In this document: piece after piece, positions 23,224 through 51,929 of the stretch
Position numbering within the stretch: position 1 is the first letter of the stretch
Layout of the letters: each line of letters starts with the position of its first letter
Origin: a virus
Lineage: Duplodnaviria; Heunggongvirae; Uroviricota; Caudoviricetes
Direction: 5' to 3' (one strand)
Virus record (IMG/VR): IMGVR_UViG_2541047794_000002
Coordinates: 1-51,929 of that record
Length of the DNA stretch: 51,929 bases
The notes under the pieces: model-generated
Told to the model about the DNA's origin: nothing
Database searches by the model: none
The model's input: the letters and a program-made list of their open reading frames with translations, nothing else
Made by a program: the position numbers and the translations under genes

Positions 23224-23243
<20 letters not shown>

Positions 23244-24540: not shown

Positions 24541-24549
24541 GGGATGTTT

Positions 24550-33560: not shown

Positions 33561-33902
33561 ATGGCTACTCATTACACTGAACTCATGGCTGGCACTGAAG
33601 CACTGGTTACTACGTTGGGGATATTTTCAGCTAATAAAGGGGTAATTCCTGCATTTACGCCACTGATGCAAGAAGATGCAACTGGTGCACTGGTGGTATG
33701 GGATGGAACGAGCGCAGGCAAAGCTGTTTATGTTTCCGCTGTACAAATCGATACAGCGACAAAAACGCAGGCTCAGGTTTATAAAACCGGCGTCTTAAAT
33801 GTTGATGCTCTGAACTGGCCTGAGTCTGTAACACAACTATCAGCAAAAGTTGCTGCGTTTGTTGGCTCAGGTATTTCTGTTCAGCCGCTGGCACGTGTGT
33901 GA
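33561..33902 (+). CDS. Decoration protein homolog (lambda gpD-like)
   Basis: 113 aa, similar length and motifs to gpD (LVVWDGTSAGKAV...YKTGVLNVDALNWPE), directly after the capsid gene as D-E are paired in lambda. Confidence 0.7.
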   Translation: MATHYTELMAGTEALVTTLGIFSANKGVIPAFTPLMQEDATGALVVWDGTSAGKAVYVSAVQIDTATKTQAQVYKTGVLNVDALNWPESVTQLSAKVAAFVGSGISVQPLARV

Positions 33903-33911
33903 GGTACGAGA

Positions 33912-34256
33912 ATGATTGAAAGAGATAGTCAGCTACGAGAGCTATTAGATATCGATGACAAAATGCGCTTAAGCGAGCGTCTTGTCGATATGAATCAGGT
34001 GATGGAACTTACAACCCTGAGTCGCCGTACACTGCTAAACCTTGAGGCTCGTGGAGAGTTCCCTGAGCGTGTGCAGGTTACGGAAGGGCGTAAGGCTTGG
34101 TATTTAAGCGAGGTTGTTGAGTGGATTAACAATATCCCGCGAGCATCAAACTATTGCCTCGTACCCACACCGGAAAAACCTGATGCGGCGTTATGCCTCA
34201 AGATTGAACGCGCCAGGCGTAATGCCCTGAAAGGGCGCAATAAGTTGATTGGTTGA
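33912..34256 (+). CDS. Second AlpA/excisionase-family HTH protein
   Basis: 114 aa; TTLSRRTLLNLEARGEFPERVQVTEGRKAWYLSEVVEWI fits the AlpA/Xis-type HTH. Confidence 0.6.
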   Translation: MIERDSQLRELLDIDDKMRLSERLVDMNQVMELTTLSRRTLLNLEARGEFPERVQVTEGRKAWYLSEVVEWINNIPRASNYCLVPTPEKPDAALCLKIERARRNALKGRNKLIG

Positions 34257-34261
34257 TGAAA

Positions 34262-34345
34262 TTAGGGCCCGCTCTGGCTGGCGGGTCCTTTCCGGCAATC
34301 CGGCAGACTACGGGGCGGAAGGCGCGCGGGTTTTCGCTATTTATG
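34262..34345. other. Element cos site, lambda-like (cosQ-cosN-cosB); cosN-equivalent GGGCGGAAGGCG at about 34313..34324
   Basis: GGGTCCTTTCCGGCAATCCGGCAGACTACGGGGCGGAAGGCGCGCGGGTTTTCGCTATTTATGA closely parallels the prophage cos at 18780..18850, with differences inside cosN. Confidence 0.75.
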
Positions 34346-34472
34346 AGCATTTTAAGGGGACTGGTGGTGGTTTTGTTGTTCGCTATATCTGTATGAATAA
34401 TAAGAGAAAAATACAATCAATACACCAACCTGAAACAGTAATTAAGTTGTGGTATCAATGAAATTACACCTG

Positions 34473-35000
34473 ATGAACAAAAAAAACATGGCAAAAAGTT
34501 GCCGTGTAAGCGCCACTGCGTTCGATAAGTGGGGAGTGATTCCCGTCGAGCGTAAGGGCCGTGAGGCGTTCTATGATGTTGCCAGTGTAATAGATAATCG
34601 GGTTAACAATGCAATCAGCCAGATTACAAACGAAACGGGCGATATTGATGACGATGAACTTTTACGCGTCAGGATCAGATTACTGACAGCACAGGCAGAG
34701 GCGCAGGAGCTTAAAAACGAGCGCGAACGCGGCGACGTTATTGATACAGAGTTTTGTATGTATGTTCTTTCCAAACTGGCGAGTCAGATTTCATCTATCA
34801 TGGACAGCCTGCCGCTTACCATGCAAAGGCGCTTCCCACAGATGACTCCGGCTATGCTGGATGGACTTAAAAAGGAAGTGGCTAAAGCCTGTAATGCCAG
34901 TGCCGGCGTTGCTGACAACCTCCCACAGATACTGGCTGATTATCTGATGGAAAGTACAGGAAACGTACCGGATAAGTTGCAGCTGAATAAGGATAAGTAA
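34473..35000 (+). CDS. Terminase small subunit homolog (Nu1 family) of the element
   Basis: From MNKKNMAKSCRVS...; central/C-terminal region aligns with Nu1 (ELKNERERGDVIDTEFCMYVLSKLASQISSIMDSLPLTMQRRFPQM vs ELKNARDSAEVVETAFCTFVLSRIAGEIASILDGIPLSVQRRFPEL). Confidence 0.8.
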   Translation: MNKKNMAKSCRVSATAFDKWGVIPVERKGREAFYDVASVIDNRVNNAISQITNETGDIDDDELLRVRIRLLTAQAEAQELKNERERGDVIDTEFCMYVLSKLASQISSIMDSLPLTMQRRFPQMTPAMLDGLKKEVAKACNASAGVADNLPQILADYLMESTGNVPDKLQLNKDK

Positions 35001-35011
35001 CGTAGTACGCT

Positions 35012-35287
35012 ATGACTGAATCCGAACTACTGAAAGTAATCTGCCATGCTGGTGGAGTCAGCCACCAGCATGACGAACAGGCCACGCAGCCGGGCAGTGT
35101 CACCGCTGAAAATTACGCTCGTGTGGTTGCTGAGGTTATGTGGCGTGACGGTATAGAACTGAACGGACAGGATTGCTTAGTCATCCGCACCAAAGTGCTG
35201 GCTATACTGGCAGCTAGGCGGAGGCAGGGACAACGCCAGAACGTTGCATCGTACCAGTGGAAGAAGCCTGACAGACTGCGGCGATAA
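35012..35287 (+). CDS. Hypothetical protein
   Basis: 91-aa ORF downstream of terS. Confidence 0.35.
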   Translation: MTESELLKVICHAGGVSHQHDEQATQPGSVTAENYARVVAEVMWRDGIELNGQDCLVIRTKVLAILAARRRQGQRQNVASYQWKKPDRLRR

Positions 35288-35689
35288 CTCTTTGATTTTC
35301 TCGACGGCCCCAAAATGGGCCTTACCATAGCCAGCTAATAAATGAGCAAGCCTCAAAAGTGAGGTTTGTGGCCGTTTGGCCTATTCATATGCTAACTCGT
35401 TGATATTCCTGACGACGCAAATTTACGCCTTGTGGCTGGTAGTCGAATTGCAAATTTGCAACTCGACTATGAAACTACCTGTAGTTTGGGTAGTAAAAGC
35501 AACACACTGATTTTGGGGCTTCTTCGCGATACCTAATATTATGGTATCGGTGGAAGAGATATCGTTTCTCATAGGTTAGCACCGAGGGCGGAGTTCCGCC
35601 CTCATCGAAAAATTGCTTACGAGTCGTCAAAATAAATTAATCGACTGAGTATAATGATTAACTAATTGCTCGTGTTACTTCATTATACG

Positions 35690-36451
35690 TTATTTCCCAT
35701 CTTTAAGGTTTAACCAAGTGTTAATTAAAAAAAGAGCCATTGAGCCTGATAAATTTACTGCAAGTTCGGCATGCCTTGGGGATGGCTTAATTGATGAGCT
35801 GTTCGTTCCATGTGCATCACCGAGTTTATTACGAAGAGTACCTAACCCATTTACAACTGCAGAACAACCGCCGAGAATTTGTTTGAAGATATTTTCAGTA
35901 TGTTGGTCGGCAGATAGGTTAAGTTCTTTTGAAAGAGTTTTATAAAGCTCTGACATTTCAATATTTTTATTATTATACTGAATGCCCATATCATCAAGAA
36001 TGTGTTTGCAAACTGTTTCAAGAAGTGTTCTTGCGGAGGTTATCGCACCATCCGGATCTGTATGGCGCCGTTCAAGTGCTTTTATCCAAACGGCGTGGAC
36101 TCCATCCTCGTTAAACTTTCTTAATACATCAGATATGTCTTCATCCGCTGGAGCTTTATTTTTCCCTTCTAGATAGTCCAGCATCGGCTGAAATGCCTTA
36201 TAAATCAAATCTCTCCGGGGGGCATACTTTTCAGTCTTTTTTATAAATCCCCAAAATTCTTTTAGTGAGCGATTAGTTCTCACAAACTCTGGTAATAGCT
36301 GATGTAAAGGAGGATTTTGTAAGAAATATGTTCTTAGAAGCAAATAATCATTATTAGCTTCATCCTGGGCTCCTGTAGCTCTTGCAATTAGTATGTTTTG
36401 AAGCGCTACTGCGCGCTCTAGGTCATTTTGAAGGGTATCTATAATATTCAT
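35690..36451 (-). CDS. Predicted abortive-infection-type protein with C-terminal HEPN-like R-x6-H motif (Abi_C/AbiJ-like); candidate anti-phage cargo
   Basis: 253 aa, AT-rich, opposite strand, at the right end of the element. C-terminal LRNKLGDAHG contains an R-x6-H motif as in HEPN RNase domains. Confidence 0.65.
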   Translation of the reverse strand: MNIIDTLQNDLERAVALQNILIARATGAQDEANNDYLLLRTYFLQNPPLHQLLPEFVRTNRSLKEFWGFIKKTEKYAPRRDLIYKAFQPMLDYLEGKNKAPADEDISDVLRKFNEDGVHAVWIKALERRHTDPDGAITSARTLLETVCKHILDDMGIQYNNKNIEMSELYKTLSKELNLSADQHTENIFKQILGGCSAVVNGLGTLRNKLGDAHGTNSSSIKPSPRHAELAVNLSGSMALFLINTWLNLKDGK

Positions 36452-36610
36452 AACAAATCTTTATTCACTTCATTTGTGGGTTGATAATTGAATGGTTTGT
36501 ACATTGATTTCTGTGTATTGCAGTGTGTATTGCAACATAGCCATTCAGGTAGAGATTATGCTCTATTTTTCCTCTTATATCATTCACATACTTACACCAT
36601 TGACTCATGT

Positions 36611-36620
36611 AGCCGAAGCA
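36611..36620. repeat. Right copy of the 10-bp direct repeat AGCCGAAGCA (att core, right junction)
   Basis: Identical to 25173..25182; followed by E sequence resuming in frame (HEVNPQMTL...). Confidence 0.75.
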
Positions 36621-37401
36621 TGAGGTGAATCCGCAGATGACCCTGCGTCGCCTGCCGGATGAAGATCCGCAGAATCTGGCGGACCCGGCTTACCGCCGCC
36701 GTCGCATCATCATGCAGAACATGCGTGACGAAGAGCTGGCCATTGCCCAGGTCGAAGAGATGCAGGCAGTTTCTGCCGTGCTTAAGGGCAAATACACCAT
36801 GACCGGTGAAGCCTTTGATCCGGTTGAGGTGGATATGGGGCGCAGTGCGGCAAACAACATCACACAGTCCGGTGGCACGGAGTGGAGCAAGCGCGACAAG
36901 TCCACGTATGACCCGACCGACGATATCGAAGCCTACGCGCTGAACGCCAGCGGCGTGGTGAATATCATCGTGTTTGATCCGAAAGGATGGGCGCTGTTCC
37001 GTTCCTTCAAGGCCGTCAAGGATAAGCTGGATACCCGTCGCGGCTCTCATTCCGAGCTGGAGACAGCGGTAAAAGACCTGGGCAAAGCGGTGTCTTATAA
37101 GGGAATGTATGGCGATGTGGCCATCGTCGTGTATTCCGGACAGTACGTGGAAAACGGCGTCAAAAAGAACTTCCTGCCGGACAACACGGTGGTGCTGGGG
37201 AACACTCAGGCACGCGGTCTGCGTACCTATGGCTGTATTCAGGATGCGGACGCACAGCGCGAAGGCATTAACGCCTCTGCCCGTTACCCGAAAAACTGGG
37301 TGACTACCGGCGATCCGGCGCGTGAGTTCACCATGATTCAGTCAGCACCGCTGATGCTGCTGGCTGACCCTGATGAATTCGTGTCCGTACAACTGGCGTA
37401 A
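36613..37401 (+). pseudogene. E: Major capsid protein E, 3' fragment (no start codon; separated from the 5' fragment by the element)
   Basis: PKHEVNPQMTLRRLPDEDPQNLADPAYRRRRIIMQNMRDEELAIAQ... to the end matches lambda gpE residues about 80-341; an in-frame TAG lies immediately upstream. Confidence 0.85.
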
Positions 37402-37442
37402 TCATGGCCCTTCGGGGCCATTTTCTCTCTGTGGAGGAGTCC

Positions 37443-37841
37443 ATGACGAAAGATGAACTGATTGCCCGTCTCCGCTCGCTGGGTGAGCAACTGAACCGTG
37501 ATGTCAGCCTGACGGGGACGAAAGAAGAACTGGCGCTCCGTGTGGCAGAGCTGGAAGAGGAGCTTGATGACACGGATGACACTGCCGGTCAGGACACCCC
37601 TCTCAGCCCGGAAAATGTGCTGACCGGGCATGAAAATGAGGTGGTATCAGCGCAGCCGGATACCGTGATTCAGGATACGGCTGAACTGGTCACGGTCGTG
37701 GCACTGGTGACGCTGCATACTGATGCACTTCACGCCACGAGGGATAAACCTGTGGCATTTGTGCTGCCGGGAACGGCGTTTCGTGTCTCTGCCGGTGTGG
37801 CAGCCGAAATGACAGAACGTGGCCTGGCCAGAATGCAATAA
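37443..37841 (+). CDS. FI: Head assembly protein FI
   Basis: From MTKDELIARLRSLGEQLN...; matches lambda gpFI. Confidence 0.85.
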   Translation: MTKDELIARLRSLGEQLNRDVSLTGTKEELALRVAELEEELDDTDDTAGQDTPLSPENVLTGHENEVVSAQPDTVIQDTAELVTVVALVTLHTDALHATRDKPVAFVLPGTAFRVSAGVAAEMTERGLARMQ

Positions 37842-37852
37842 CGGGAGGCGCT

Positions 37853-38206
37853 GTGGCTGATTTCGATAACCTGTTCGATGCTGCCATTGCCCGCGCTGAT
37901 GAAACGATACGCGGGTATATGGGAACGTCAGCCACCATGACATCCGGTGAGCAGTCCGGTGCTGTGATACGTGGTGTTTTTGATGACCCTGAAAATATCA
38001 GCTATGCCGGACAGGGTGTGCGCGTTGAAGGCTCCAGCCCGTCCCTGTTTGTCCGGACTGATGATGTGCGGCAGCTGCGGCGTGGAGACACGCTGACCAT
38101 CGGTGAGGAAAACTTCTGGATAGACCGGGTTTCGCCGGATGATGGCGGAAGCTGTCATCTCTGGCTTGGACGGGGCGTACCGCCTGCCGTTAACCGTCGT
38201 CGCTGA
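37853..38206 (+). CDS. FII: Head-tail joining protein FII
   Basis: 117 aa matching lambda gpFII. Confidence 0.9.
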   Translation: MADFDNLFDAAIARADETIRGYMGTSATMTSGEQSGAVIRGVFDDPENISYAGQGVRVEGSSPSLFVRTDDVRQLRRGDTLTIGEENFWIDRVSPDDGGSCHLWLGRGVPPAVNRRR

Positions 38207-38217
38207 AAGGAGGAGGT

Positions 38218-38796
38218 ATGGCCATAAAAGGTCTTGAGCAGGCCGTTGAAAACCTCAGCCGTATCAGCAAAACGGCGGTGCCTGGTGCCGCAGCAATGGC
38301 CATTAACCGCGTTGCTTCATCCGCGATATCGCAGTCGGCGTCACAGGTTGCCCGTGAGACAAAGGTACGCCGGAAACTGGTAAAGGAAAGGGCCAGGCTG
38401 AAAAGGGCCACGGTCAAAAATCCGCAGGCCAGAATCAAGGTTAACCGGGGGGATTTGCCCGTAATCAGGCTGGGTAACGCGCGGGTTGTCCTGTCCCGAC
38501 GCAGGCGTCGTAAAAAGGGGCAGCGTTCAGCCCTGAAAGGTGGCGGCAGTGTGCTTGTGGTGGGAAACCGTCGTATTCCCGGCGCGTTTATTCAGCAACT
38601 GAAAAATGGCCGCTGGCATGTCATGCAGCGTGTGGCCGGGAAAAACCGTTACCCCATTGATGTGGTGAAAATCCCGATGGCGGTGCCGCTTACCACGGCG
38701 TTTAAACAGCATATTGAGCGGATACGGCGTGAGCGTCTTCCGAAAGAGCTGGGCTATGCGCTGCAGCATCAACTGAGGATGGTAATAAAGCGATGA
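38218..38796 (+). CDS. Z: Tail completion protein Z
   Basis: 192 aa matching lambda gpZ. Confidence 0.9.
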   Translation: MAIKGLEQAVENLSRISKTAVPGAAAMAINRVASSAISQSASQVARETKVRRKLVKERARLKRATVKNPQARIKVNRGDLPVIRLGNARVVLSRRRRRKKGQRSALKGGGSVLVVGNRRIPGAFIQQLKNGRWHVMQRVAGKNRYPIDVVKIPMAVPLTTAFKQHIERIRRERLPKELGYALQHQLRMVIKR

Positions 38797-39188
38797 AACA
38801 TACTGAACTCCGAGCAGCCGTACTGGATGCACTGGAGAAGCATGACACCGGGGCGACGCTTTTTGATGGTCGCCCCGCTGTTTTTGATGAGGAAGATTTT
38901 CCGGCAATTGCCGTTTATCTCACCGGCGCTGAATACACGGGCGAAGAGCTGGACAGCGATACCTGGCAGGCGGAGCTGCATATTGAAGTTTTCCTGCCTG
39001 CTCAGGTGCCGGATTCAGAGCTGGATTCGTGGATGGAGTCCCGGATTTATCCGGTGATGAGCGATATCCCGGCACTGTCAGATTTGATCACCAGTATGGT
39101 GGCCAGTGGCTATGACTACCGGCGCGACGATGATGCGGGCCTGTGGAGTTCAGCCGATCTGACTTATGTCATTACCTATGAAATGTGA
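38793..39188 (+). CDS. U: Tail terminator protein U
   Basis: 131 aa matching lambda gpU. Confidence 0.9.
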
Positions 39189-39195
39189 GGACGAT

Positions 39196-39936
39196 ATGCC
39201 TGTACCAAATCCAGTAATGCCGGTGAAAGGGGCCGGGACCACACTGTGGGTTTATAAGGGGAACGGTGACCCTTATGCGAACCCGCTTTCAGACGTTGAC
39301 TGGTCGCGTCTGGCTAAAGTTAAAGACCTGACGCCCGGCGAACTGACCGCTGAGTCCTATGACGACAGCTATCTCGATGATGAAGATGCGGACTGGACTG
39401 CGACCGGGCAGGGGCAGAAATCTGCCGGAGATACCAGCTTCACGCTGGCGTGGATGCCCGGAGAGCAGGGGCAGCAGGCGCTGCTGGCGTGGTTTAATGA
39501 AGGGGATACCCGTGCCTATAAAATCCGCTTCCCGAACGGCACGGTCGATGTGTTCCGCGGCTGGGTCAGCAGTATCGGTAAGGCGGTGACGGCGAAGGAA
39601 GTGATCACCCGCACGGTGAAAGTCACCAACGTGGGACGTCCGTCGATGGCAGAAGATCGCAGCACGGTAACAGCGGCAACCGGCATGACCGTGACGCCTG
39701 CCAGCACTTCGGTGGTGAAAGGGCAGAGCACCACGCTGACCGTGTCATTCCAGCCGGAAGGCGCAACCGACAAGAGCTTCCGTGCGGTGTCTGCGGATAA
39801 AACAAAAGCCACCGTGTCGGTCAGTGGTATGACCATCACCGTGAAAGGTGTTGCTGCAGGCAAGGTCAACATTCCGGTTGTATCCGGTAATGGTGAACTT
39901 GCTGTGGTTGCAGAAATCACCGTCACCGACAGTTAA
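39196..39936 (+). CDS. V: Major tail tube protein V
   Basis: From [22 protein letters not shown]...; matches lambda gpV including the C-terminal Ig-like domain. Confidence 0.9.
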
Positions 39937-39951
39937 TCCGGAGAGTCAGCG

Positions 39952-40374
39952 ATGTTCCTGAAAACCGAATCATTTGAATATAACGGTGTGAGCGTCACGC
40001 TTTCTGAACTGTCAGCCCTGCAGCGTATTGAGCATCTCGCCCTGCTGAAACGACAGGCAGAACAGGCGGGATCCAGTCTCAATCGACAGGTGAGCGTGGA
40101 AGATCTCGTCAGAACCGGTGCTTTTCTGGTGGCGATGTCCCTGTGGCATAGCCATCCGCAGAAGACAAAGATGCCGTCCATGAATGAAGCCGTTAAACAA
40201 ATTGAGCAGGAAGTGCTTACCACCTGGCCCACAGAGGCAATTGCTCAGGCTGAAAATGTGGTAATGCGTCTGTCCGGTATGTCTGAGTTTGTTGTGAATG
40301 ATGCACCTGAACAGGCAGATGACGCCGGGCCCGCAGAGCCTGTTTCTGCGGGAAAGTGTTCGACGGTGAGCTGA
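39952..40374 (+). CDS. G: Tail assembly chaperone G
   Basis: 140 aa matching lambda gpG. Confidence 0.9.
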   Translation: MFLKTESFEYNGVSVTLSELSALQRIEHLALLKRQAEQAGSSLNRQVSVEDLVRTGAFLVAMSLWHSHPQKTKMPSMNEAVKQIEQEVLTTWPTEAIAQAENVVMRLSGMSEFVVNDAPEQADDAGPAEPVSAGKCSTVS

Positions 40375-40790
40375 GTTTTGCCCTGAAACTGGCGCGTGAG
40401 ATGGGGCGACCCGACTGGCGCGCCATGCTTGCCGGGATGTCATCCACGGAGTATGCCGACTGGCACCGCTTTTACAGTACCCATTATTTTCATGATGTTC
40501 TGCTGGATATGCACTTTTCCGGGCTGACGTACACCGTGCTCAGCCTGTTTTTCAGCGATCCGGATATGCATCCGCTGGATTTCAGTCTGCTGAACCGGCG
40601 CGAGGCTGACGAAGAGCCTGAAGATGATGTGCTGATGCAGAAAGCGGCAGGGCTTGCCGGAGGCGTTCGTTTTGGCCCGGACGGGAATGAAGTTATCCCC
40701 GCTTCCCCGGATGTGGCGGACATGACGGAGGATGACGTAATGCTGATGACAGTATCAGAAGGGATCGCAGGAGGAGTCCGGTATGGCTGA
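40356..40790 (+). CDS. T: Tail assembly protein T, expressed as the G-T fusion by -1 programmed frameshift
   Basis: Slippery heptamer GGGAAAG at 40349..40355 at the end of G; the -1 frame continues as (V)FDGELSFALKLAREMGRPDW... matching lambda gpT. Confidence 0.8.
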   Translation: MFDGELSFALKLAREMGRPDWRAMLAGMSSTEYADWHRFYSTHYFHDVLLDMHFSGLTYTVLSLFFSDPDMHPLDFSLLNRREADEEPEDDVLMQKAAGLAGGVRFGPDGNEVIPASPDVADMTEDDVMLMTVSEGIAGGVRYG

Positions 40791-43341
40791 ACCGGTAGGC
40801 GATCTGGTCGTTGATTTAAGTCTGGATGCGGCCAGATTTGACGAGCAGATGGCCAGAGTCAGGCGTCATTTTTCCGGTACGGAAAGTGATGCGAAAAAAA
40901 CAGCGGCAGTCGTTGAACAGTCGCTGAGCCGACAGGCACTGGCTGCACAGAAAGCGGGGATTTCCGTCGGGCAGTATAAAGCCGCCATGCGTATGCTGCC
41001 TGCGCAGTTCACCGACGTGGCCACGCAGCTTGCAGGCGGGCAAAGTCCGTGGCTGATCCTGCTGCAACAGGGTGGTCAGGTGAAGGACTCCTTCGGCGGG
41101 ATGATCCCCATGTTCAGAGGGCTTGCCGGTGCGATCACCCTGCCGATGGTCGGGGCCACCTCGCTGGCGGTGGCGACCGGTGCGCTGGCGTATGCCTGGT
41201 ATCAGGGCAACTCAACCCTGTCCGATTTCAACAAAACGCTGGTCCTTTCCGGCAATCAGTCGGGTCTGACGGCAGATCGTATGCTGGTCCTGTCCAGAGC
41301 CGGGCAGGCGGCAGGGCTGACGTTTAACCAGACCAGCGAGTCACTGACGGCGCTGGTGAATGCAGGTGTGCGTGGTGGTGAGCAGTTTGAGGCGATCAGC
41401 CAGAGTGTGGCGCGTTTCTCCTCTGCATCCGGCGTGGAGGTGGACAAGGTCGCTGAAGCCTTCGGGAAGCTGACCACAGACCCGACGTCGGGACTGACAG
41501 CGATGGCACGTCAGTTCCATAACGTGACGGCGGAGCAGATTGCGTATGTTGCTCAGTTGCAGCGTTCCGGCGATGAAGCCGGGGCATTGCAGGCGGCGAA
41601 CGAGGCCGCGACGAAAGGGTTTGATGACCAGACCCGCCGCCTGAAAGAGAACATGGGTACGCTGGAGACCTGGGCAGACAGGACAGCGCGGGCATTCAAA
41701 TCCATGTGGGATGCGGTGCTGGATATTGGTCGTCCTGATACCACGCAGGAGATGCTGATTAAGGCAGAGGCTGCGTTTAAGAAAGCGGACGACATCTGGA
41801 GTCTGCGCAAGGATGATTATTTTGTTAACGATGAAGCGCGGGCGCGTTACTGGGATGATCGTGAAAAGGCCCGTCTTGCGCTTGAAGCCGCGAGAAAGAA
41901 GGCTGAGCAGCAGACTCAACAGGACAAAAATGCGCAGCAGCAGAGCGATACCGAAGCGTCACGGCTGAAATATACCGAAGAGGCGCAGAAGGCTTACGAA
42001 CGCCTGCAGACGCCGCTGGAGAAATATACCGCCCGTCAGGAAGAACTGAATAAGGCACTGAAAGACGGGAAAATCCTGCAGGCAGATTACAACACGCTGA
42101 TGGCGGCGGCGAAAAAGGACTATGAAGCGACGCTGAAAAAGCCGAAACAGTCCGGCGTGAAGGTGTCTGCGGGCGATCGTCAGGAAGACAGTGCTCATGC
42201 TGCCCTGCTGACGCTTCAGGCAGAACTCCGGACGCTGGAGAAGCATGCCGGAGCGAATGAGAAAATCAGCCAGCAGCGCCGGGATTTGTGGAAGGCGGAG
42301 AGTCAGTTCGCGGTACTGGAGGAGGCGGCACAACGTCGCCAGCTGTCCGCACAGGAGAAATCCCTGCTGGCGCATAAAGATGAGACGCTGGAGTACAAAC
42401 GCCAGCTGGCTGCACTTGGCGATAAGGTCACGTATCAGGAGCGCCTGAATGCGCTGGCGCAGCAGGCGGATAAATTCGCACAGCAGCAACGGGCAAAACG
42501 GGCCGCCATTGATGCGAAAAGCCGGGGGCTGACTGACCGGCAGGCAGCGCGGGAAGCCACAGAACAGCGCCTGAAGGAACAGTATGGCGATAATCCTCTG
42601 GCGCTGAATAACGTCATGTCAGAGCAGAAAAAGACCTGGGCGGCTGAAGACCTGCTTCGCGGGAACTGGATGGCAGGCCTCAGGTCCGGCTGGAGCGAGT
42701 GGAAAGAGAGTGCCACGGACAGTATGTCGCAGGTTAAAAGTGCTGCCACGCAGACCTTTGATGGTATTGCGCAGAATATGGCGGCGATGCTGACCGGCAG
42801 TGAACAGAACTGGCGCAGCTTCACCCGCTCCGTGCTGTCCATGATGACGGAAATTCTGCTTAAGCAGGCAATGGTGGGGATTGTCGGGAGTATCGGCAGC
42901 GCCATTGGCGGGGCTGTTGGTGGCGGCGCATCAGCGTCAGACGGTACAGCCATTCAGGCTGCTGCGGCGAAATTCCATTTTGCGACCGGAGGATTTACGG
43001 GAACCGGCGGCAAATATGAGCCAGCGGGGATTGTTCACCGTGGTGAATTTGTCTTCACGAAGGAGGCAACCAGCCGGATTGGCGTGGGAAATCTTTACCG
43101 GCTGATGCGCGGCTATGCCACCGGTGGTTATGTCGGTGGCACCGGAAGTCCGGCGCAAATGCGGCGTTCAGAGGGTATCAGATTTGAGCAGAACAACAAC
43201 GTGGTGATTCAGAACGACGGTACGAATGGTCTGCCAGGTCCACAGATGCTGAAGGCAGTGTATGACATGGCCCGCAAGGGTGCCCGTGATGAAATTCAGG
43301 CACAGATGCGCGATGGTGGTCTGTTCTCCGGAGGTGGGTGA
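40783..43341 (+). CDS. H: Tail tape-measure protein H
   Basis: 852 aa matching lambda gpH. Confidence 0.95.
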   Translation: MAEPVGDLVVDLSLDAARFDEQMARVRRHFSGTESDAKKTAAVVEQSLSRQALAAQKAGISVGQYKAAMRMLPAQFTDVATQLAGGQSPWLILLQQGGQVKDSFGGMIPMFRGLAGAITLPMVGATSLAVATGALAYAWYQGNSTLSDFNKTLVLSGNQSGLTADRMLVLSRAGQAAGLTFNQTSESLTALVNAGVRGGEQFEAISQSVARFSSASGVEVDKVAEAFGKLTTDPTSGLTAMARQFHNVTAEQIAYVAQLQRSGDEAGALQAANEAATKGFDDQTRRLKENMGTLETWADRTARAFKSMWDAVLDIGRPDTTQEMLIKAEAAFKKADDIWSLRKDDYFVNDEARARYWDDREKARLALEAARKKAEQQTQQDKNAQQQSDTEASRLKYTEEAQKAYERLQTPLEKYTARQEELNKALKDGKILQADYNTLMAAAKKDYEATLKKPKQSGVKVSAGDRQEDSAHAALLTLQAELRTLEKHAGANEKISQQRRDLWKAESQFAVLEEAAQRRQLSAQEKSLLAHKDETLEYKRQLAALGDKVTYQERLNALAQQADKFAQQQRAKRAAIDAKSRGLTDRQAAREATEQRLKEQYGDNPLALNNVMSEQKKTWAAEDLLRGNWMAGLRSGWSEWKESATDSMSQVKSAATQTFDGIAQNMAAMLTGSEQNWRSFTRSVLSMMTEILLKQAMVGIVGSIGSAIGGAVGGGASASDGTAIQAAAAKFHFATGGFTGTGGKYEPAGIVHRGEFVFTKEATSRIGVGNLYRLMRGYATGGYVGGTGSPAQMRRSEGIRFEQNNNVVIQNDGTNGLPGPQMLKAVYDMARKGARDEIQAQMRDGGLFSGGG

Positions 43342-43670
43342 TGAAGACCTTCCGCTGGAAAGTGAAACCCGGTATGGATGTGGCTTCGGCCCCTTCCGTC
43401 AGGAAAGTGCGCTTTGGTGATGGCTATTCCCAGCGAGCGCCTGCCGGGCTGAATGCCGACCTGAAAACGTACAGCGTGACGCTTTCTGTTCCCCGTTGGG
43501 AGGCCACGGCGCTGGAGTCGTTTCTGGCTGAGCACGGGGGCTGGAAAGCCTTCCTGTGGACGCCGCCTTATGAGTGGCGGCAGATAAAGGTGACCTGCGC
43601 AAAATGGTCGTCGCGGGTCAGTATGCTGCGTGTTGAGTTCAGCGCAGAGTTTGAACAGGTGGTGAACTGA
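43338..43670 (+). CDS. M: Minor tail protein M
   Basis: 110 aa matching lambda gpM. Confidence 0.9.
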   Translation: MMKTFRWKVKPGMDVASAPSVRKVRFGDGYSQRAPAGLNADLKTYSVTLSVPRWEATALESFLAEHGGWKAFLWTPPYEWRQIKVTCAKWSSRVSMLRVEFSAEFEQVVN

Positions 43671-44368
43671 TGCAGGATATCCGGCAGGAAACACTGAATG
43701 AATGCACCCGTGCGGAGCAGTCGGCCAGCGTGGTGCTCTGGGAAATCGACCTGACAGAGGTCGGTGGAGAACATTATTTTTTCTGTAATGAGCAGAACGA
43801 AAAAGGTGAGCCGGTCACCTGGCAGGGGCGACAGTATCAGCCGTATCCCATTCAGGGGAGTGGTTTTGAACTGAATGGCAAAGGCACCAGTACGCGCCCC
43901 ACGCTGACGGTTTCTAACCTGTACGGTATGGTTACCGGTATGGTGGAAGATATGCAGAGTCTGGTCGGCGGAACGGTGGTCAGGCGTAAGGTTTACGCCC
44001 GTTTTCTGGATGCGGTGAACTTCGTCAACGGAAACAGCGACGCCGATCCGGAGCAGGAGGTGATCAGTCGCTGGCGCATCGAGCAGTGCAGCGAACTGAG
44101 CGCGGTCAGTGCCTCCTTTGTACTGTCCACGCCGACGGAAACGGACGGCGCTGTTTTTCCGGGACGTATCATGCTGGCCAACACCTGCACCTGGACCTAT
44201 CGCGGCGATGAGTGCGGTTATAGCGGTCCGGCGGTCGCGGATGAATATGATCAGCCGACGTCCGATATCACGAAGGATAAATGCAGCAAATGCCTGAGTG
44301 GCTGTAAGTTCCGCAATAACGTCGGCAACTTTGGCGGCTTCCTTTCCATTAACAAACTTTCGCAGTAA
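43670..44368 (+). CDS. L: Minor tail protein L
   Basis: 232 aa matching lambda gpL. Confidence 0.9.
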   Translation: MQDIRQETLNECTRAEQSASVVLWEIDLTEVGGEHYFFCNEQNEKGEPVTWQGRQYQPYPIQGSGFELNGKGTSTRPTLTVSNLYGMVTGMVEDMQSLVGGTVVRRKVYARFLDAVNFVNGNSDADPEQEVISRWRIEQCSELSAVSASFVLSTPTETDGAVFPGRIMLANTCTWTYRGDECGYSGPAVADEYDQPTSDITKDKCSKCLSGCKFRNNVGNFGGFLSINKLSQ

Positions 44369-44373
44369 ATCCC

Positions 44374-45117
44374 ATGACAGAGACAGAATCAGCGATTCTG
44401 GCGCACGCCCGGCGATGCGCGCCAGCGGAGTCGTGCGGCTTCGTGGTGAGAGCGCCGGAGGGGGAAAGATATTTTCCCTGCGTGAATATCTCCGGTGAGC
44501 CGGAGGCGTATTTCCGTATGTCGCCGGAAGACTGGCTGCAGGCAGAAATGCAGGGTGAGATTGTGGCGCTGGTCCACAGCCACCCCGGTGGTCTGCCCTG
44601 GCTGAGTGAGGCCGACAGGCGGCTGCAGGTGCAGAGTGATTTGCCGTGGTGGCTGGTCTGCCGGGGAGTGATTCATAAGTTCCGCTGTGTGCCGCATCTC
44701 ACCGGGCGGCGTTTTGAGCACGGGGTGACAGACTGTTATACGCTGTTCCGCGATGCCTATCATCTTGCAGGTATCGATTTGCCGGATTTTTACCGACATG
44801 ATGACTGGTGGAAATCAGGTCAGAATCTCTATCTGGATAATCTGGAGGCCACAGGGCTGTATCAGGTGGCGTTGTCATCAGCACAACCGGGCGATGTGCT
44901 GCTGTGCTGTTTTGGTTCATCGGTGCCGAATCATGCCGCCATTTACTGTGGTGATGGCGAGCTGCTGCACCATATTCCTGAACAACTGAGCAAACGAGAG
45001 AGGTATACCGACAAATGGCAGCGACGCACACACTCCCTCTGGCGTCACCGGGCATGGCACGCATCTGCCTTTACGGGGATTTACAACGATTTGGCCGCCG
45101 CATCGATCTTCGTGTGA
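44374..45117 (+). CDS. K: Tail assembly protein K (JAB/MPN plus NlpC/P60 domains)
   Basis: 247 aa matching lambda gpK. Confidence 0.9.
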   Translation: MTETESAILAHARRCAPAESCGFVVRAPEGERYFPCVNISGEPEAYFRMSPEDWLQAEMQGEIVALVHSHPGGLPWLSEADRRLQVQSDLPWWLVCRGVIHKFRCVPHLTGRRFEHGVTDCYTLFRDAYHLAGIDLPDFYRHDDWWKSGQNLYLDNLEATGLYQVALSSAQPGDVLLCCFGSSVPNHAAIYCGDGELLHHIPEQLSKRERYTDKWQRRTHSLWRHRAWHASAFTGIYNDLAAASIFV

Positions 45118-45686
45118 AAACGGGGGCTGAAGCTATCCGGGCGCTGGCCACACAGCTCCCGGCGTTTCGTCAGAAACTGAGCGACGGCTGGTATCAGGTA
45201 CGGATTGCCGGACGGGATGTCAGCACGTCCGGATTAACGGCGCAGTTACATGAGACTCTGCCTGATGGCGCTGTGATTCATATTGTTCCCAGAGTCGCCG
45301 GGGCCAAGTCAGGTGGCGTATTCCAGATTGTCCTGGGAGCTGCCGCCATTGCCGGATCATTCTTTACTGCCGGAGCCACCCTTGCAGCATGGGGGGCAGC
45401 CATTGGGGCCGGTGGTATGACCGGCATCCTGTTTTCTCTCGGTGCCAGTATGGTGCTCGGTGGTGTGGCGCAGATGCTGGCACCGAAAGCCAGAACTCCC
45501 CGTACACAGACAACGGATAACGGCAAACAGAACACCTATTTCTCCTCACTGGATAACATGGTTGCCCAGGGCAATGTTCTGCCGGTTCTGTACGGTGAAA
45601 TGCGCGTGGGGTCACGCGTGGTTTCTCAGGAGATCAGCACGGCAGACGAAGGGGATGGTGGTCAGGTTGTGGTGATTGGTCGCTGA
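45015..45686 (+). CDS. I: Tail assembly protein I
   Basis: 223 aa matching lambda gpI; overlaps the K 3' end as in lambda. Confidence 0.9.
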   Translation: MAATHTLPLASPGMARICLYGDLQRFGRRIDLRVKTGAEAIRALATQLPAFRQKLSDGWYQVRIAGRDVSTSGLTAQLHETLPDGAVIHIVPRVAGAKSGGVFQIVLGAAAIAGSFFTAGATLAAWGAAIGAGGMTGILFSLGASMVLGGVAQMLAPKARTPRTQTTDNGKQNTYFSSLDNMVAQGNVLPVLYGEMRVGSRVVSQEISTADEGDGGQVVVIGR

Positions 45687-45746: not shown

Positions 45747-48700
45747 ATGGGTAAAGGCAGCAGTAAGGGGCATACCCCGCGCGAAGCGAAGGACAACCTG
45801 AAGTCCACGCAGCTGCTGAGTGTGATCGATGCCATCAGCGAAGGGCCGGTTGAAGGTCCGGTGGATGGATTAAAAAGCGTGCTGCTGAACAGCACGCCGG
45901 TGCTGGACACTGAGGGGAATACCAACATATCCGGTGTCACGGTGGTGTTCCGTGCCGGTGAGCAGGAGCAGACACCGCCGGAGGGGTTTGAATCCTCCGG
46001 CTCCGAGACGGTGCTCGGTACAGAAGTGAAATATGACACGCCGATCACCCGGACCATCACGTCGGCAAACATTGACCGTCTGCGTTTTACTTTCGGCGTG
46101 CAGACACTGGTGGAAACCACCTCAAAGGGGGACAGGAATCCGTCGGAAGTCCGCCTGCTGGTTCAGATACAGCGTAACGGTGGCTGGGTGACGGAAAAAG
46201 ACATCACCATTAAGGGCAAAACCACCTCGCAGTATCTGGCCTCGGTGGTGGTGGGAAACCTGCCGCCGCGCCCGTTTAATATCCGGATGCGCAGGATGAC
46301 GCCGGACAGCACCACAGACCAGCTGCAGAACAAAACGCTCTGGTCGTCATACACCGAAATCATCGATGTGAAACAGTGCTACCCGAACACGGCACTGGTC
46401 GGCGTGCAGGTGGACTCGGAACAGTTCGGCAGTCAGCAGGTGAGCCGTAATTATCATCTTCGCGGGCGCATTCTGCAGGTGCCGTCGAACTATAACCCGC
46501 AGACGCGGCAATACAGCGGTATCTGGGACGGAACGTTTAAGCCAGCATACAGCAACAACATGGCCTGGTGTCTGTGGGATATGCTGACCCATCCGCGCTA
46601 CGGCATGGGGAAGCGTCTCGGTGCGGCGGATGTGGACAAATGGGCGCTGTATGTCATCGGCCAGAATTGCGACCAGTCGGTGCCGGATGGCTTTGGTGGC
46701 ACGGAGCCGCGCATCACCTGTAATGCCTGGCTGACCACACAGCGTAAGGCGTGGGATGTTCTCAGTGATTTCTGCTCGGCGATGCGCTGTATGCCGGTAT
46801 GGAACGGGCAGACGCTGACGTTCGTGCAGGACCGACCATCAGATAAGGTGTGGACCTATAACCGCAGTAATGTGGTGATGCCGGATGATGGCGCGCCGTT
46901 CCGCTACAGCTTCAGCGCCCTGAAGGACCGCCATAATGCCGTTGAGGTGAACTGGATTGACCCGGATAACGGCTGGGAGACGGCGACAGAGCTTGTTGAA
47001 GATACGCAGGCCATTGCCCGTTACGGTCGTAACGTCACGAAGATGGATGCCTTTGGCTGTACCAGCCGGGGGCAGGCGCACCGCGCCGGGCTGTGGCTGA
47101 TTAAAACGGAACTGCTGGAAACGCAGACCGTGGACTTCAGCGTGGGTGCGGAAGGGCTTCGCCATGTACCGGGGGATGTCATTGAAATCTGCGATGATGA
47201 CTATGCGGGTATCAGCATCGGCGGGCGCGTGCTGGCGGTGAACAGCCAGACCCGGACGCTGACGCTCGACCGTGAAATCACGCTGCCATCCTCCGGTACC
47301 ACGCTGATAAGCCTGGTTGACGGAAGTGGCAATCCGGTCAGCGTGGAGGTCCAGTCCGTCACCGACGGCGTGAAGGTAAAAGTGAGCCGTGTTCCTGACG
47401 GCGTTGCCGGATACAGCGTGTGGGGGCTGAAGCTGCCGACGCTGCGCCAGCGCCTGTTCCGCTGCGTGAGTATCCGTGAGAACGACGACGGCACGTATGC
47501 CATCACCGCCGTGCAGCATGTACCGGAAAAAGAAGCCATCGTGGATAACGGGGCGCACTTTGACGGCGACCAGAGCGGCACGGTGAATGGTGTCACGCCG
47601 CCAGCAGTGCAGCACCTGACTGCCGAAGTCACCGCAGACAGCGGGGAGTATCAGGTACTGGCCCGCTGGGACACGCCGAAGGTGGTGAAGGGCGTAAGTT
47701 TCATGCTTCGCCTGACCGTGGCAGCGGATGACGGCAGTGAGCGGCTGGTCAGCACAGCCCGGACGGCGGAAACCACATACCGCTTCACACAACTGGCGCT
47801 GGGGAACTACAGGCTGACAGTCCGGGCAGTAAATGCGTGGGGGCAGCAGGGCGATCCGGCATCGGTATCGTTCCGGATTGCCACACCGGCAGCGCCGTCG
47901 CAGATTGAGCTGACACCGGGGTATTTTCAGATAACCGCCACGCCGCATCTTGCGGTTTATGATCCGACGGTACAGTTTGAGTTCTGGTTCTCGGAAAAGC
48001 GGATTGCGGATATCAGGCAGGTTGAAACCACAGCACGCTATCTTGGCACGGCGCTGTACTGGATAGCCGCCAGTATCAATATCAAACCGGGCCATGATTA
48101 TTATTTTTACATCCGCAGTGTGAACACCGTTGGCAAATCGGCATTTGTGGAGGCTGTTGGCCAGCCGAGTGATGATGCATCCGGCTATCTGAATTTTTTC
48201 AAAGGAGAGATAGGGAAAACCCATCTGGCTCAGGAGTTGTGGACGCAGATTGATAACGGTCAGCTTGCGCCTGACCTGGCTGAAATCAGGACGTCCATTA
48301 CGGGTGTCAGCAATGAAATCACGCAGACCGTCAATAAGAAACTGGAAGACCAGAGTGCAGCGATCCAGCAGATACAGAAGGTTCAGGTTGATACAAATAA
48401 TAACCTGAACAGCATGTGGGCTGTGAAGCTGCAGCAGATGCAGGACGGACGCCTTTATATCGCGGGTATTGGTGCCGGTATTGAGAATACTCCTGACGGT
48501 ATGCAGAGTCAGGTGCTGCTGGCGGCGGACAGGATTGCGATGATTAATCCTGCGAATGGCAACACAAAGCCGATGTTTGTTGGGCAGGGCGATCAGATAT
48601 TCATGAACGAAGTGTTCCTGAAATATCTGACGGCTCCCACCATTACCAGCGGTGGCAATCCCCCAACGTTTTCACTGACACCTGATGGTCGACTTTCTGC

Positions 48701-49229
48701 GAAAAATGCGGATATCAGCGGTAACGTGAACGCGAACTCCGGGACGCTCAACAACGTCACGATTAATCAGAACTGTCGGATTCTGGGAAAACTGTCAGCT
48801 AACCAGATTGAAGGTGATATTGTCAAAACGGTGGGAAAAGCCTTTCCGAGAAATGGCAGTTATGCCAGCGGTACAATAACGGTCACTGTGTACGATGACC
48901 AGGCTTTTGACCGTCAGATAGTAGTCCCCCCCGTTCTGTTTCGTGGGGGTAAGCATGAAAACTTCAACAGCAACAACCAACAGTCATACTGGTATTCAAC
49001 CTGTAAGCTGCAGGTACTGAAGAACGGACAGGAAATCTTTCAGCAACCCGCGACGGATGTCAGCAGGGTATTTTCATCAGTCATTGATATGCCTGCCGGA
49101 CACGGCCATGTCACCCTGACTTTCAATGTTTCTTCATATGGTGCTAATAACTGGACGCCAACGACCAGTATCAGCGACCTTCTTGTTGTTGTGATGAAGA
49201 AATCTACAGCCGGTATCAGTATCAGTTGA
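45747..49229 (+). CDS. J: Central tail fibre / host specificity protein J
   Basis: 1160 aa; N-terminal about 1000 aa match lambda gpJ; the C-terminal receptor-binding region diverges from lambda. Confidence 0.95.
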
Positions 49230-49281
49230 ATTTTATAACCCAGATACGGGCGCCAGAAATGGCGCCTTTTTTATTTGTGGA

Positions 49282-51348
49282 GTGAATATGGCAGTACAGA
49301 TTTCAGGCGTGCTGAAAGACGGTGCAGGAAAACCGATACAGAACTGCACCATTCAGCTCAAAGCAAAACGTAACAGCACCACGGTTGTGGTGAACACGGT
49401 GGCCTCAGAAAATCCGGATGAAGCCGGACGTTACAGCATGGATGTCGAGTATGGCCAGTACAGCGTTATCCTGCTGGTTGAAGGTTTTCCGCCTTCACAT
49501 GCCGGGGCTATCACCGTGTATGAGGATTCTAAGCCGGGGACATTGAATGATTTTCTGGGCGCTGCAACAGAAGATGATGTTCGTCCGGAGGCACTGTATC
49601 GTTTTGAAAAGATGGTGGAAGAGGTGGCACGCAACGCTGAAGCCGCCTCTCAGAGCGCAGCGGCAGCAAAGAAATCAGAAACAGCAGCGGCATCGTCCAG
49701 GAATGCGGCGAAAACATCAGAGACGAATGCAGGTAACAGCGCGAAAGCGGCAGCTTCTTCAAAAACAGCCGCACAAAACGCAGCAACAGCGGCAGAACGT
49801 TCAGAGACAAATGCCCGTGCGTCAGAAGAAGCCTCCGCAGACAGTGAAGAGGCTTCCCGCCGTAATGCAGAGTCAGCCGCTGAAAATGCCGGAGTCGCCA
49901 CCACAAAAGCGCGGGAGGCCGCAGCAGACGCAACAAAGGCCGGGCAGAAAAAGGATGAGGCTCTGTCGGCAGCGACACGGGCTGAAAAGGCGGCAGACCG
50001 CGCAGAAGTCGCAGCGGAAGTGACTGCAGAGCCCTATGCGAATATAGTGCCGCCGCTGCCTGATGTGTGGATACCGTTTAACGATTCACTGGATATGATT
50101 GCGGGTTTTTCTCCGGGCTATAAAAAAATAGCTATTGGTGACGATGTGGTTCAGGTCGCCAGTGATAAACAGGTTAATTTCAGTCGCGCATCAACGGCAA
50201 CATATATCAACAAATCTGGCGAACTGAAAACGGCGGAAATTAATGAGCCGCGATTTGAGTGTGATGGCCTGCTTATTGAGGGACAAAGAACGAACTACAT
50301 GCTCAATTCGGAAAGTCCAGCCAGCTGGGGGAAGTCATCAAACATGGATGTGCCCGAAACCGGGACGGATAGTTTTGGTTTTACTTATGGAAAGTTTGTC
50401 TGCAACGATTCTCTGGTTGGGCAAACTTCGGCTATTAATATGGCATCAATTGCTGCAACAAAGTCAGTTGATGTCTCAGGCGATAACAAGTACGTGACAA
50501 CCTCATGCCGTTTTAAAACAGAACGACAGGTAAGGTTACGTATACGGTTTGATAAGTATGATGGTAGTGCAACAACTTTTCTTGGCGATGCGTACATTGA
50601 TACGCAAACGCTTGAAATTAATATGACAGGTGGTGCTGCCGGCAGAATTACGGCACGAGTCAGGAAGGATAAGACCACAGGCTGGATTTTTGCAGAGGCA
50701 ACGATTCAGGCAATTGATGGTGAGTTAAAAATAGGCTCTCAGATACAGTATTCTCCTGAGCAGGGTGGGGCAACAGTATCTGGTGACTATATTTATCTTG
50801 CCACCCCACAAGTAGAGAATGGGCCGTGTGTATCATCATTTATTATTTCAGGAGGCAGCGCAACGACAAGAGCCAGTGATTTGGTTAGTATCCCCACCAG
50901 AAATAATCTTTATAAGTTACCATTTACTTTTTTACTTGAGATTCATAAAAACTGGGATATTGCACCAAACGCCGCACCCCGCGTGTGGGATATAGCAGCA
51001 GCCAATACCGGGCAATCAGCAATTGCAGCAATCAACAGAGGTAGTGATAAGTTATATATGAGTCTGTCAAACCCTTCAGGCTCGTATGTTAATAGCGCAG
51101 CGACAGATGTATTTGCAGAGAAAACCACATTTGGATGTATTGCAAAAGCTGATGGTCACTTTCATGTGGTGACAAATGGTAAAGCGGTTAATGAAGTTTA
51201 TTGTGAATATAATGGCGTGACCGCTGATAAAAATATCCGATTTGGAGGGCAGACGAATACTGGAGAACGACATCTGTTTGGCCATATTCGCAATTTCCGC
51301 ATATGGCATAAAGAATTAAATGACAGGCAATTAAAAGAGGTCGTATGA
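49282..51348 (+). CDS. stf: Side tail fibre protein Stf (lambda-like N-terminus, distinct C-terminal domain)
   Basis: 688 aa; MAVQISGVLKDGAGKPIQNCTIQLKAKRNSTTVVVNTV... matches the lambda Stf N-terminus and Ala/Ser-rich shaft; C-terminal about 350 aa unrelated to lambda Stf. Confidence 0.85.
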   Translation: MNMAVQISGVLKDGAGKPIQNCTIQLKAKRNSTTVVVNTVASENPDEAGRYSMDVEYGQYSVILLVEGFPPSHAGAITVYEDSKPGTLNDFLGAATEDDVRPEALYRFEKMVEEVARNAEAASQSAAAAKKSETAAASSRNAAKTSETNAGNSAKAAASSKTAAQNAATAAERSETNARASEEASADSEEASRRNAESAAENAGVATTKAREAAADATKAGQKKDEALSAATRAEKAADRAEVAAEVTAEPYANIVPPLPDVWIPFNDSLDMIAGFSPGYKKIAIGDDVVQVASDKQVNFSRASTATYINKSGELKTAEINEPRFECDGLLIEGQRTNYMLNSESPASWGKSSNMDVPETGTDSFGFTYGKFVCNDSLVGQTSAINMASIAATKSVDVSGDNKYVTTSCRFKTERQVRLRIRFDKYDGSATTFLGDAYIDTQTLEINMTGGAAGRITARVRKDKTTGWIFAEATIQAIDGELKIGSQIQYSPEQGGATVSGDYIYLATPQVENGPCVSSFIISGGSATTRASDLVSIPTRNNLYKLPFTFLLEIHKNWDIAPNAAPRVWDIAAANTGQSAIAAINRGSDKLYMSLSNPSGSYVNSAATDVFAEKTTFGCIAKADGHFHVVTNGKAVNEVYCEYNGVTADKNIRFGGQTNTGERHLFGHIRNFRIWHKELNDRQLKEVV

Positions 51349-51623
51349 AAGATTTAACTTTGAAGTTTCATGACAAACTGCAGTTTAAGGCCTTCCTGTC
51401 ATCTCTTGGCTGGGCGGAAGATGAAGACCTCCAGAATAAACTGTTAGTTGATGAAATTGGTTTCACCTACACAGAAACAGGGGTAACAGAAGAGGGAGAA
51501 CCTGTCTGTATCCGGAATGATGGTTATTTTGTCAACATTCGCATTCTTGATGACTTGTTTGATGTTTCTGTATTCTCTGATTATGTCGTGGAGCTGGAAA
51601 CACCGCTTCGGGAATGGAGCTGA
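51345..51623 (+). CDS. Hypothetical protein coupled to stf (possible tail-fibre assembly/chaperone)
   Basis: 92-aa ORF whose start overlaps the stf stop (ATGA); function inferred only from position. Confidence 0.45.
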   Translation: MKDLTLKFHDKLQFKAFLSSLGWAEDEDLQNKLLVDEIGFTYTETGVTEEGEPVCIRNDGYFVNIRILDDLFDVSVFSDYVVELETPLREWS

Positions 51624-51635
51624 AAGGAGGAAATA

Positions 51636-51929
51636 ATGGATATAAGCCCCTTACTTCATGCACTTTGTGCTGTGGCTGCGCAGATACTGGTTGGTCTTTT
51701 TACCGGAAACTGGGCTTACGGAGCGATAGCCGGTTGTACGTTCTTCATTGCGCGTGAACATACCCAGGCAGAATATCGCTGGATTGAAATGTTCGGGCAT
51801 GGCAAGCGAATGAATATGCCGTGGTGGGGCGGTTTTGATCCGCGTGCTTGGGATGTGGCAAGCCTGATGGATTTTGCTGTGCCGGTGGTGGCGTGTCTGC
51901 TGGTCTGGCTGTTGGTTAATCGTGGGTGA
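51636..51929 (+). CDS. Hypothetical membrane protein, 3' end beyond window
   Basis: ORF preceded by AGGAGG and open to the window end; two hydrophobic segments. Confidence 0.45.
   Translation: MDISPLLHALCAVAAQILVGLFTGNWAYGAIAGCTFFIAREHTQAEYRWIEMFGHGKRMNMPWWGGFDPRAWDVASLMDFAVPVVACLLVWLLVNRG

Follow-up and report, generated by a model that had tools for sequence, protein, structure and literature searches.

The window analysed here is a stretch of 51,929 nucleotides from a virus of the Caudoviricetes (IMG/VR record IMGVR_UViG_2541047794_000002, positions 1 to 51,929). It carries, towards its right end, the genes of two tail fibres, the central tail fibre J and the side tail fibre Stf, while the capsid gene E of the same lambda-type structural region is interrupted by what appears to be a phage-inducible chromosomal island (PICI). 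A preliminary description of this DNA had pointed out that the C-terminal ends of both J and Stf differ from those of lambda, and had predicted from both changes a host range different from lambda's, which the embedded element would then share by borrowing these tails. The locus thus raises the question of whether such divergent ends are new host-range determinants, and which receptors the two fibres would recognise.

Origin of the tail end

The region 48100..51929 matched the classical lambdoid phage 21 (OL657228) at 99.6% DNA identity. Five nucleotides differ between the two sequences in 48100..51000, and distal J (48100..49229) holds a single difference, which gives I912 in the window versus V in phage 21. 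When the complete J proteins were compared we counted 16 substitutions, 15 of them in residues 1-713 and the other being I912V, and residues 913-1160 are identical. Stf has the same length as the phage 21 Stf and differs from it by three substitutions (Q492R, D587G and S599L), and the product of orf92, the small gene that follows stf, differs from its phage 21 counterpart at 3 residues. The product of the last gene of the window, orf97, is identical to phage 21 CPT_21_24, a "putative membrane protein" (PHROG 1443, function not assigned).

The gene order is also that of phage 21, in which CPT_21_21 (central tail fibre J), CPT_21_22 (side tail fibre), CPT_21_23 and CPT_21_24 stand in the same succession: both sequences have J, a terminator, a side tail fibre, a hypothetical protein and a putative membrane protein, and both are without lom and tfa. 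In phage 21 itself sitDCBA comes after the two small open reading frames (ORFs), and no tfa lies next to stf; congruently, tblastn searches with lambda lom and tfa found no homologue of either gene anywhere in the window. The spacer between J and stf is 58 bp long and contains a terminator-like structure consisting of a GC-rich hairpin (GGGCGCC-AGAAAT-GGCGCC) followed by a T run, and the phage 21 record annotates a terminator at the identical sequence (4650..4677 of the phage 21 locus). Other phages, namely mEp460, ev017 and several ECOR-derived phages, match 48100..51929 as well as phage 21 does, and at least 80% of this region was present in 410 of the 5426 complete E. coli genomes searched, with strains 536 and F11 among the carriers.

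The structural region is otherwise lambda-type. Using NC_001416 as the lambda reference, we found that 18808..25182 corresponds to lambda 1..6379 at 98.3% identity and 36611..45242 to lambda 6370..15000 at 95.7%; in these surrounding head and tail genes, and in the PICI embedded in gene E, the window is unlike phage 21. Our results indicate that 48100..51929 is the tail-end module of phage 21, which has already been sequenced and partly characterised. The window combines a lambda-like prophage and a tail end of the phage 21 type, an ordinary lambdoid mosaic to be ascribed to the modular recombination that is usual in this group of phages.

J and its terminal receptor

We compared J with lambda J by BLASTP and in bins of 50 residues. 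The two proteins are 83% identical overall (E = 0), and this identity is distributed very unevenly: each bin of residues 1-800 is 94-100% identical (47-50 of 50 positions), with ~98% identity up to about residue 805, while the two bins of residues 801-900 retain 21 and 14 identical positions out of 50 and include 28 inserted residues, located at about residues 836-865 (~48252..48341 of the window). Identity rises to 30/50 and 44/50 in residues 901-1000 and lies at 22-29/50 per bin in residues 1001-1150, and the last 160 residues are about 45-47% identical to lambda J (77 of 165 alignment columns). In the DNA, similarity to lambda over J (94.8% identity) extends as far as 48243, beyond which we found a weak patch of 73% identity at 48413..48776 and no match in the final ~450 nt of the gene. 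These values bear out the earlier account of J as lambda-like over most of its length with a different C-terminal region, and the point at which that difference had been placed, 48100, is about right when set beside the end of the DNA match. In concordance with this, formal alignment of the C-terminal regions with those of lambda did not align the ends of either J or Stf closely.

The C-terminus of J is nevertheless to be regarded, on sequence grounds, as diverged from that of lambda rather than unrelated to it, because the Pfam family Ig_GpJ_C (PF12421) still matches residues 1038-1160 at 129 bits (cut-off 26.2). The NCBIfam model lambda_TipJ (NF049904) spans residues 1-1160 at 2378.8 bits (cut-off 1950), and the Pfam domains found along the protein were Phage-tail_3, FNIII-A_GpJ, Ig_J, Ig_J_second, Phage_Tail_Tip and Ig_GpJ_C. 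J keeps the hub and the immunoglobulin (Ig) domains of lambda, together with the distal fibre and the receptor-binding domain of phage 21. It shares with lambda J (PDB 8iyk, 8xcj) the family, the architecture and, if the phage 21 literature is followed, the receptor LamB, but its distal part is diverged, it has a 28-residue insertion that is absent from lambda J and its receptor-binding domain is only ~45% identical.

The receptor of phage 21 J has been studied by others with phage 21 of the same accession, OL657228, on ΔlamB and double-knockout hosts: its native receptor is LamB, with no growth on ΔlamB cells until mutations arise in J, and a single J change, I1025T, adds the use of OmpC, to which further J mutations add OmpF (bioRxiv 10.1101/2023.04.13.536812; PMC11336670). 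Since the receptor-binding domain of the window J is identical to that of phage 21 and residue 1025 is the wild-type Ile, as in phage 21, the expected terminal receptor of this J is likely LamB, as it is for lambda. We propose that the J trimer would bind the maltoporin LamB as terminal receptor and trigger DNA ejection like lambda J, and that it would be one mutation (I1025T) away from the additional use of OmpC.

A search of the solved structures with distal J gave as best match not lambda J (8iyk, E = 3.6e-99) but A8 gpJ (PDB 9wca, E = 1.3e-149), an engineered chimera (9wca/9wcb) that recognises OmpC (Brodel et al., bioRxiv 10.1101/2022.09.30.509847) and whose receptor-binding domain is of the same subtype as that of the window J, with 82% identity over residues 1001-1160. 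Together with the ~45% identity to lambda of the last 160 residues, and with the single substitution that suffices for phage 21 J to gain OmpC, this resemblance speaks for a diverged domain that recognises a receptor other than LamB (OmpC, for example) and confers a host range unlike lambda's. We consider this very unlikely, as ancestral phage 21, which is LamB-dependent and unable to lyse ΔlamB cells, has exactly this domain, position 1025 is the wild-type Ile, and 29 differences separate residues 1001-1160 from those of A8. A8 uses OmpC, whereas the window allele is that of the LamB-using phage 21, and the candidate of an OmpC-specific J drawn from the similarity to A8 gpJ was rejected on the grounds of the phage 21 identity and the wild-type I1025. 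The prediction of a non-lambda host range from both divergent ends consequently fails for the primary receptor of J, a LamB-using phage 21 allele, but it is a reasonable one for Stf, the distal part of which belongs to a different fold family.

The side tail fibre and its distal domains

The attachment end of Stf is clearly of the lambda type. Residues 1-158 are 74% identical by BLASTP to lambda orf-401 (in laboratory lambda stf is frameshifted, and orf-401 is its N-terminal portion), and the Pfam domain phage_tail_N (PF08400) covers residues 1-131 at 230 bits (E = 9.8e-69). A profile of the N-terminal region matched residues 1-94 of a solved "Tail fiber protein" (9e7m), and the PHROG matches of Stf were 1419 ("tail protein") and 3279 ("tail fiber protein"). 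The shaft, on the other hand, resembles residues 239-345 of orf-401 out of register and in composition only (53% over 107 residues), and after about residue 250 Stf has no match to orf-401 or to orf-314, the latter giving no BLASTP match at E < 10. The preliminary description had assigned to Stf a lambda-like N-terminus and shaft joined to an unrelated C-terminal domain of about 350 residues; of this, the N-terminus and the unrelated end stand, while the likeness of the shaft is one of composition and the unrelated end amounts to ~437 residues. Set beside Ur-lambda Stf/Tfa, then, the window Stf has a 74%-identical attachment domain, but its distal part is of another fold family and no lom or tfa accompanies it.

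The first part of this distal region, residues 297-543, is matched by the NCBIfam model GTA_spike_fiber (NF048003) at 55.7 bits (cut-off 36) and by Rcc01080, the head spike fibre of the gene transfer agent RcGTA (PDB 6tb9_F3), for which E was 6.5e-10 in a single-sequence search and 2.4e-43 when a profile of 47 sequences was used. The single-sequence search of the PDB with the distal part of Stf found only Rcc01080, and the lectin domain that lies beyond it was found through profile and fold searches. Like its homologue in Stf, residues 297-543, Rcc01080 is a binding domain of the beta-sandwich type at the distal end of a fibre of the virion; it is unlike Stf in that it sits on the capsid of a gene transfer agent and not on a tail tip, in having no phage_tail_N domain and in its low pairwise similarity. 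For the head spike fibre of RcGTA, binding to capsular polysaccharide has been shown (PMC10218006).

An AlphaFold model built from an alignment of 47 sequences (representatives at 50% identity) reached a predicted local distance difference test score (pLDDT) of 94.2 and a predicted template modelling score (pTM) of 0.90; a model from a shallow alignment of 14 close E. coli alleles was discarded, with a pLDDT of 52. In the predicted structure the distal domain has the jelly-roll beta-sandwich fold of the concanavalin A (ConA)-like superfamily, and the nearest folds to the model are ligand-binding jelly rolls, namely botulinum toxin (BoNT) Hc regions with their lectin-like subdomain, sialic-acid binding modules of family CBM40, pentraxins and a Pseudomonas phage baseplate protein. 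The Pfam family Laminin_G_3 matches 25 of the 47 Stf homologues, at best with E = 1.9e-11.

The variation within the family offers a further view of this region. Among close E. coli alleles of Stf, differences are concentrated at residues 575-649, which are 49-53% identical compared with 80-95% elsewhere, a distribution that fits a specificity-determining surface. The family of the C-terminal module comprises 2895 representative clusters at E <= 0.001, in which the module is always C-terminal and is carried by fibres with unrelated N-termini (phage_tail_N, P2-type Phage_tail_fib, Phage_fiber_2 and Tail_spike_N). This C-terminal position behind unrelated N-termini is the signature of an exchangeable receptor-binding module.

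A general scheme has been described in which the lateral fibres have glycans as ligands and the central fibre a porin (PMC11990801). By analogy, the ligand of Stf is likely a surface glycan, and the adsorption range could shift accordingly; Stf is an accessory adsorption factor and not the terminal receptor binder. We picture a fibre that would attach to the tail tip by its lambda-like N-terminal domain, continue in a short Ala-rich shaft and end in two beta-sandwich domains, one like the RcGTA spike fibre and the other a distal ConA-like lectin with a hypervariable patch. Such a fibre would reversibly bind a surface glycan (O-antigen, lipopolysaccharide core or capsule), and this binding would speed or gate the access of J to LamB and thereby tune the strain range. 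To this reading as a whole, with a phage 21 tail-end module, a LamB-binding J and a glycan-binding Stf, we give a probability of about 0.8.

The ligand could instead be an outer-membrane protein, in the way that has been suggested for Ur-lambda Stf with OmpC, and this idea draws on the reported use of OmpC by Ur-lambda Stf and on several solved structures which show that ConA-like domains and those of the BoNT Hc type can also bind proteins. However, Stf has no homology to the distal part of lambda Stf, its closest characterised homologue binds capsular polysaccharide and its best structural neighbours are mostly carbohydrate-binding modules, and we find a protein ligand rather unlikely. To the possibility that the distal domains form an enzyme, a glycanase or depolymerase of the ConA-like glucanase superfamily that degrades a surface polysaccharide, we give hardly any credence.

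Whether the fibre is assembled at all touches on orf92. This gene overlaps the stf stop codon in an ATGA and encodes a 92-residue protein with an isoelectric point of 4.2 (PHROG 1361, function not assigned) and without similarity to lambda Tfa. In E. coli AST216, where Stf is 60% identical, a homologue with 54% identity overlaps the end of stf in the same way (31908..32189 of the AST216 locus). The orf92 product may be a candidate fibre assembly factor or chaperone in place of Tfa, a function that this acidic, translationally coupled protein may have taken over. The opposite possibility is that Stf is dispensable baggage which, as in laboratory lambda PaPa, is not assembled on virions, there being no encoded Tfa chaperone; the lack of a tfa homologue in the window and beside phage 21 stf, as well as the terminator between J and stf, are compatible with it. 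We judge it improbable, given that the ORF of 686 residues is intact, has the length of the phage 21 gene and carries 3 substitutions only, that the gene is kept in hundreds of genomes with an allelic variation concentrated distally, which is typical of selection on binding, and that a conserved coupled small ORF follows it. As for the terminator, late transcription under Q antitermination reads through terminators in lambdoid phages.

Returning to the glycan-binding fibre, its fullest form would have the hypervariable domain of a lectin-like Stf read a specific E. coli glycan (O-antigen, core or capsule) and set the strain range of both helper and PICI, with orf92 as a new kind of assembly factor replacing Tfa; we advance this combined proposal tentatively and rate it at somewhat less than an even chance. 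Several points weigh against our interpretation of the two fibres. Laminin_G_3 (PF13385) scores 23.7-24.9 bits on this Stf, which is under its gathering threshold of 27.6. Our literature search found no paper on the receptor of phage 21 Stf and no report of side fibres on phage 21 virions, and no ligand has been reported for the E. coli members of this Stf family, nor any chaperone function for the widespread module. The differences from phage 21 J, 15 of the 16 in residues 1-713 and one at I912V, may have effects on assembly. Finally, the capsid gene E is interrupted, and virions would need either the excision of the PICI or its own capsid gene; that the prophage still makes virions is something that we infer.

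The embedded satellite and other genes of the window

The interruption of E is an 11.4-kb low-GC insert (~25183..36610) within the lambda-type major capsid gene, flanked by a 10-bp block, AGCCGAAGCA, at 25173..25182 and 36611..36620, and the homology to lambda is broken inside E at lambda nt 6370-6379. The genes of the insert encode an integrase, a D5-type primase, an E-family capsid protein of its own, a D-family decoration protein, AlpA, a Nu1-like small terminase and an Abi protein; we found no portal, large terminase or tail genes in these 11.4 kb. A PADLOC analysis of the low-GC accessory genes gave a sole match, AbiJ-like, for the Abi_C protein of the PICI. A helper-embedded PICI, "11capE", has been described at the site E:Phage_cap_E:80 of the helper prophage "50icd" (Mageeney et al. 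2023, PMC10111431), and the insert resembles it in its length of ~11.4 kb, its position at E:Phage_cap_E:80 of a lambda-type E, the 10-bp identity block, the orientation along the late genes and the presence of int, pri, its own capsid gene and alpA, a likeness of type and site. From these traits the embedded element appears to be of the published helper-embedded type of PICI inserted in gene E.

Because the PICI has no tail genes, it would depend on the tails of its helper. The borrowing of tails that had been proposed for the embedded element is plausible in this light, and is an already published hypothesis for elements of this type (PMC10111431). The left junction (24883..25482, capsid fragment and integrase) is present in 172 of the 5426 complete E. 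coli genomes and the right junction (36311..36910, Abi gene and capsid fragment) in 41, so that the element differs from genome to genome in the accessory cargo of its right end.

A related helper-embedded PICI was observed in gene E of a lambda-like helper with another tail end in E. coli AST216 (NZ_AP043625.1 617693..650292). The receptor-binding domain of this helper's J is 64% identical to that of the window and 43% identical to that of lambda, lom is present, and its Stf, of 791 residues, shares the distal module at 60% identity; another gene with a tail-fibre domain comes next. With this different tail end, the satellite family is therefore not tied to a single one and would inherit the range of its helper. 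The features of the right end of the window are collected in Table 1.

Table 1. Fibre genes, their domains and adjoining features at the right end of the window
Feature	Coordinates	Strand	Remarks
J, central tail fibre / tail tip attachment protein	45747..49229	+	1160 residues
J residues 1-805, lambda-like hub and Ig/FN3 (fibronectin type III) region	45747..48161	+	lambda J identity
J residues 806-1160, divergent distal part (central straight fibre and receptor-binding domain), phage 21 allele	48162..49229	+	
J residues 1038-1160, C-terminal receptor-binding Ig-like domain Ig_GpJ_C	48858..49226	+	Pfam PF12421
Intrinsic terminator between J and stf	49249..49276	+	identical to annotated phage 21 terminator
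Stf, side tail fibre, phage 21 allele	49288..51348	+	686 residues counted from ATG
Stf residues 1-131, tail-attachment N-terminal domain, common to lambda Stf	49288..49680	+	Pfam phage_tail_N
Stf residues ~115-249, Ala/Ser/Glu-rich low-complexity shaft, shorter than lambda's	49630..50034	+	
Stf residues 297-543, RcGTA head spike fibre homologue domain	50176..50916	+	GTA_spike_fiber, PDB 6tb9
Stf residues 560-686, predicted distal ConA-like lectin (Laminin_G_3) domain; hypervariable stretch at residues ~575-649	50965..51345	+	
orf92, small acidic protein, start overlaps stf stop	51345..51623	+	92 residues
orf97, small predicted membrane protein	51636..51929	+	97 residues; stop codon is the window's last position

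Elsewhere in the prophage we observed further cargo. A full-length general porin (Pfam Porin_1, E = 2.2e-151) is encoded on the minus strand at 15168..16310. It lies upstream of a lysozyme gene (17054..17551), and the Nu1/A packaging genes come later; a porin brought in by a phage could change the set of porins in the host and, with it, the host's sensitivity to other phages. A low-GC stretch (36-40% GC), 9739..12658, which looks like inserted accessory cargo, begins shortly after the O/P replication genes (7067..8784), on their downstream side, and encodes a large serine recombinase (508 residues, plus strand) and a BD-FAE family esterase of the alpha/beta-hydrolase type (347 residues, minus strand). 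At 4540..5403, on the minus strand, a 287-residue protein with the domains DUF7946 and DUF7947, for which PADLOC gave no match, adjoins a CI-like repressor gene (5470..6198; helix-turn-helix and Peptidase_S24).

For annotation, these results mean that the right end of the window should be labelled a phage 21-type J/Stf module, with LamB as the expected terminal receptor, and not a new host-range determinant. More generally, sequence divergence alone does not predict receptor choice, because the lambda domain, at ~45% identity, uses LamB too, while that of A8, at 82%, uses OmpC, and one mutation is enough to add OmpC. Lectin-type Stf proteins are common in E. coli prophages, and whatever range tails such as these give to a helper would be the range of its satellite too, the PICI being without tail genes of its own.

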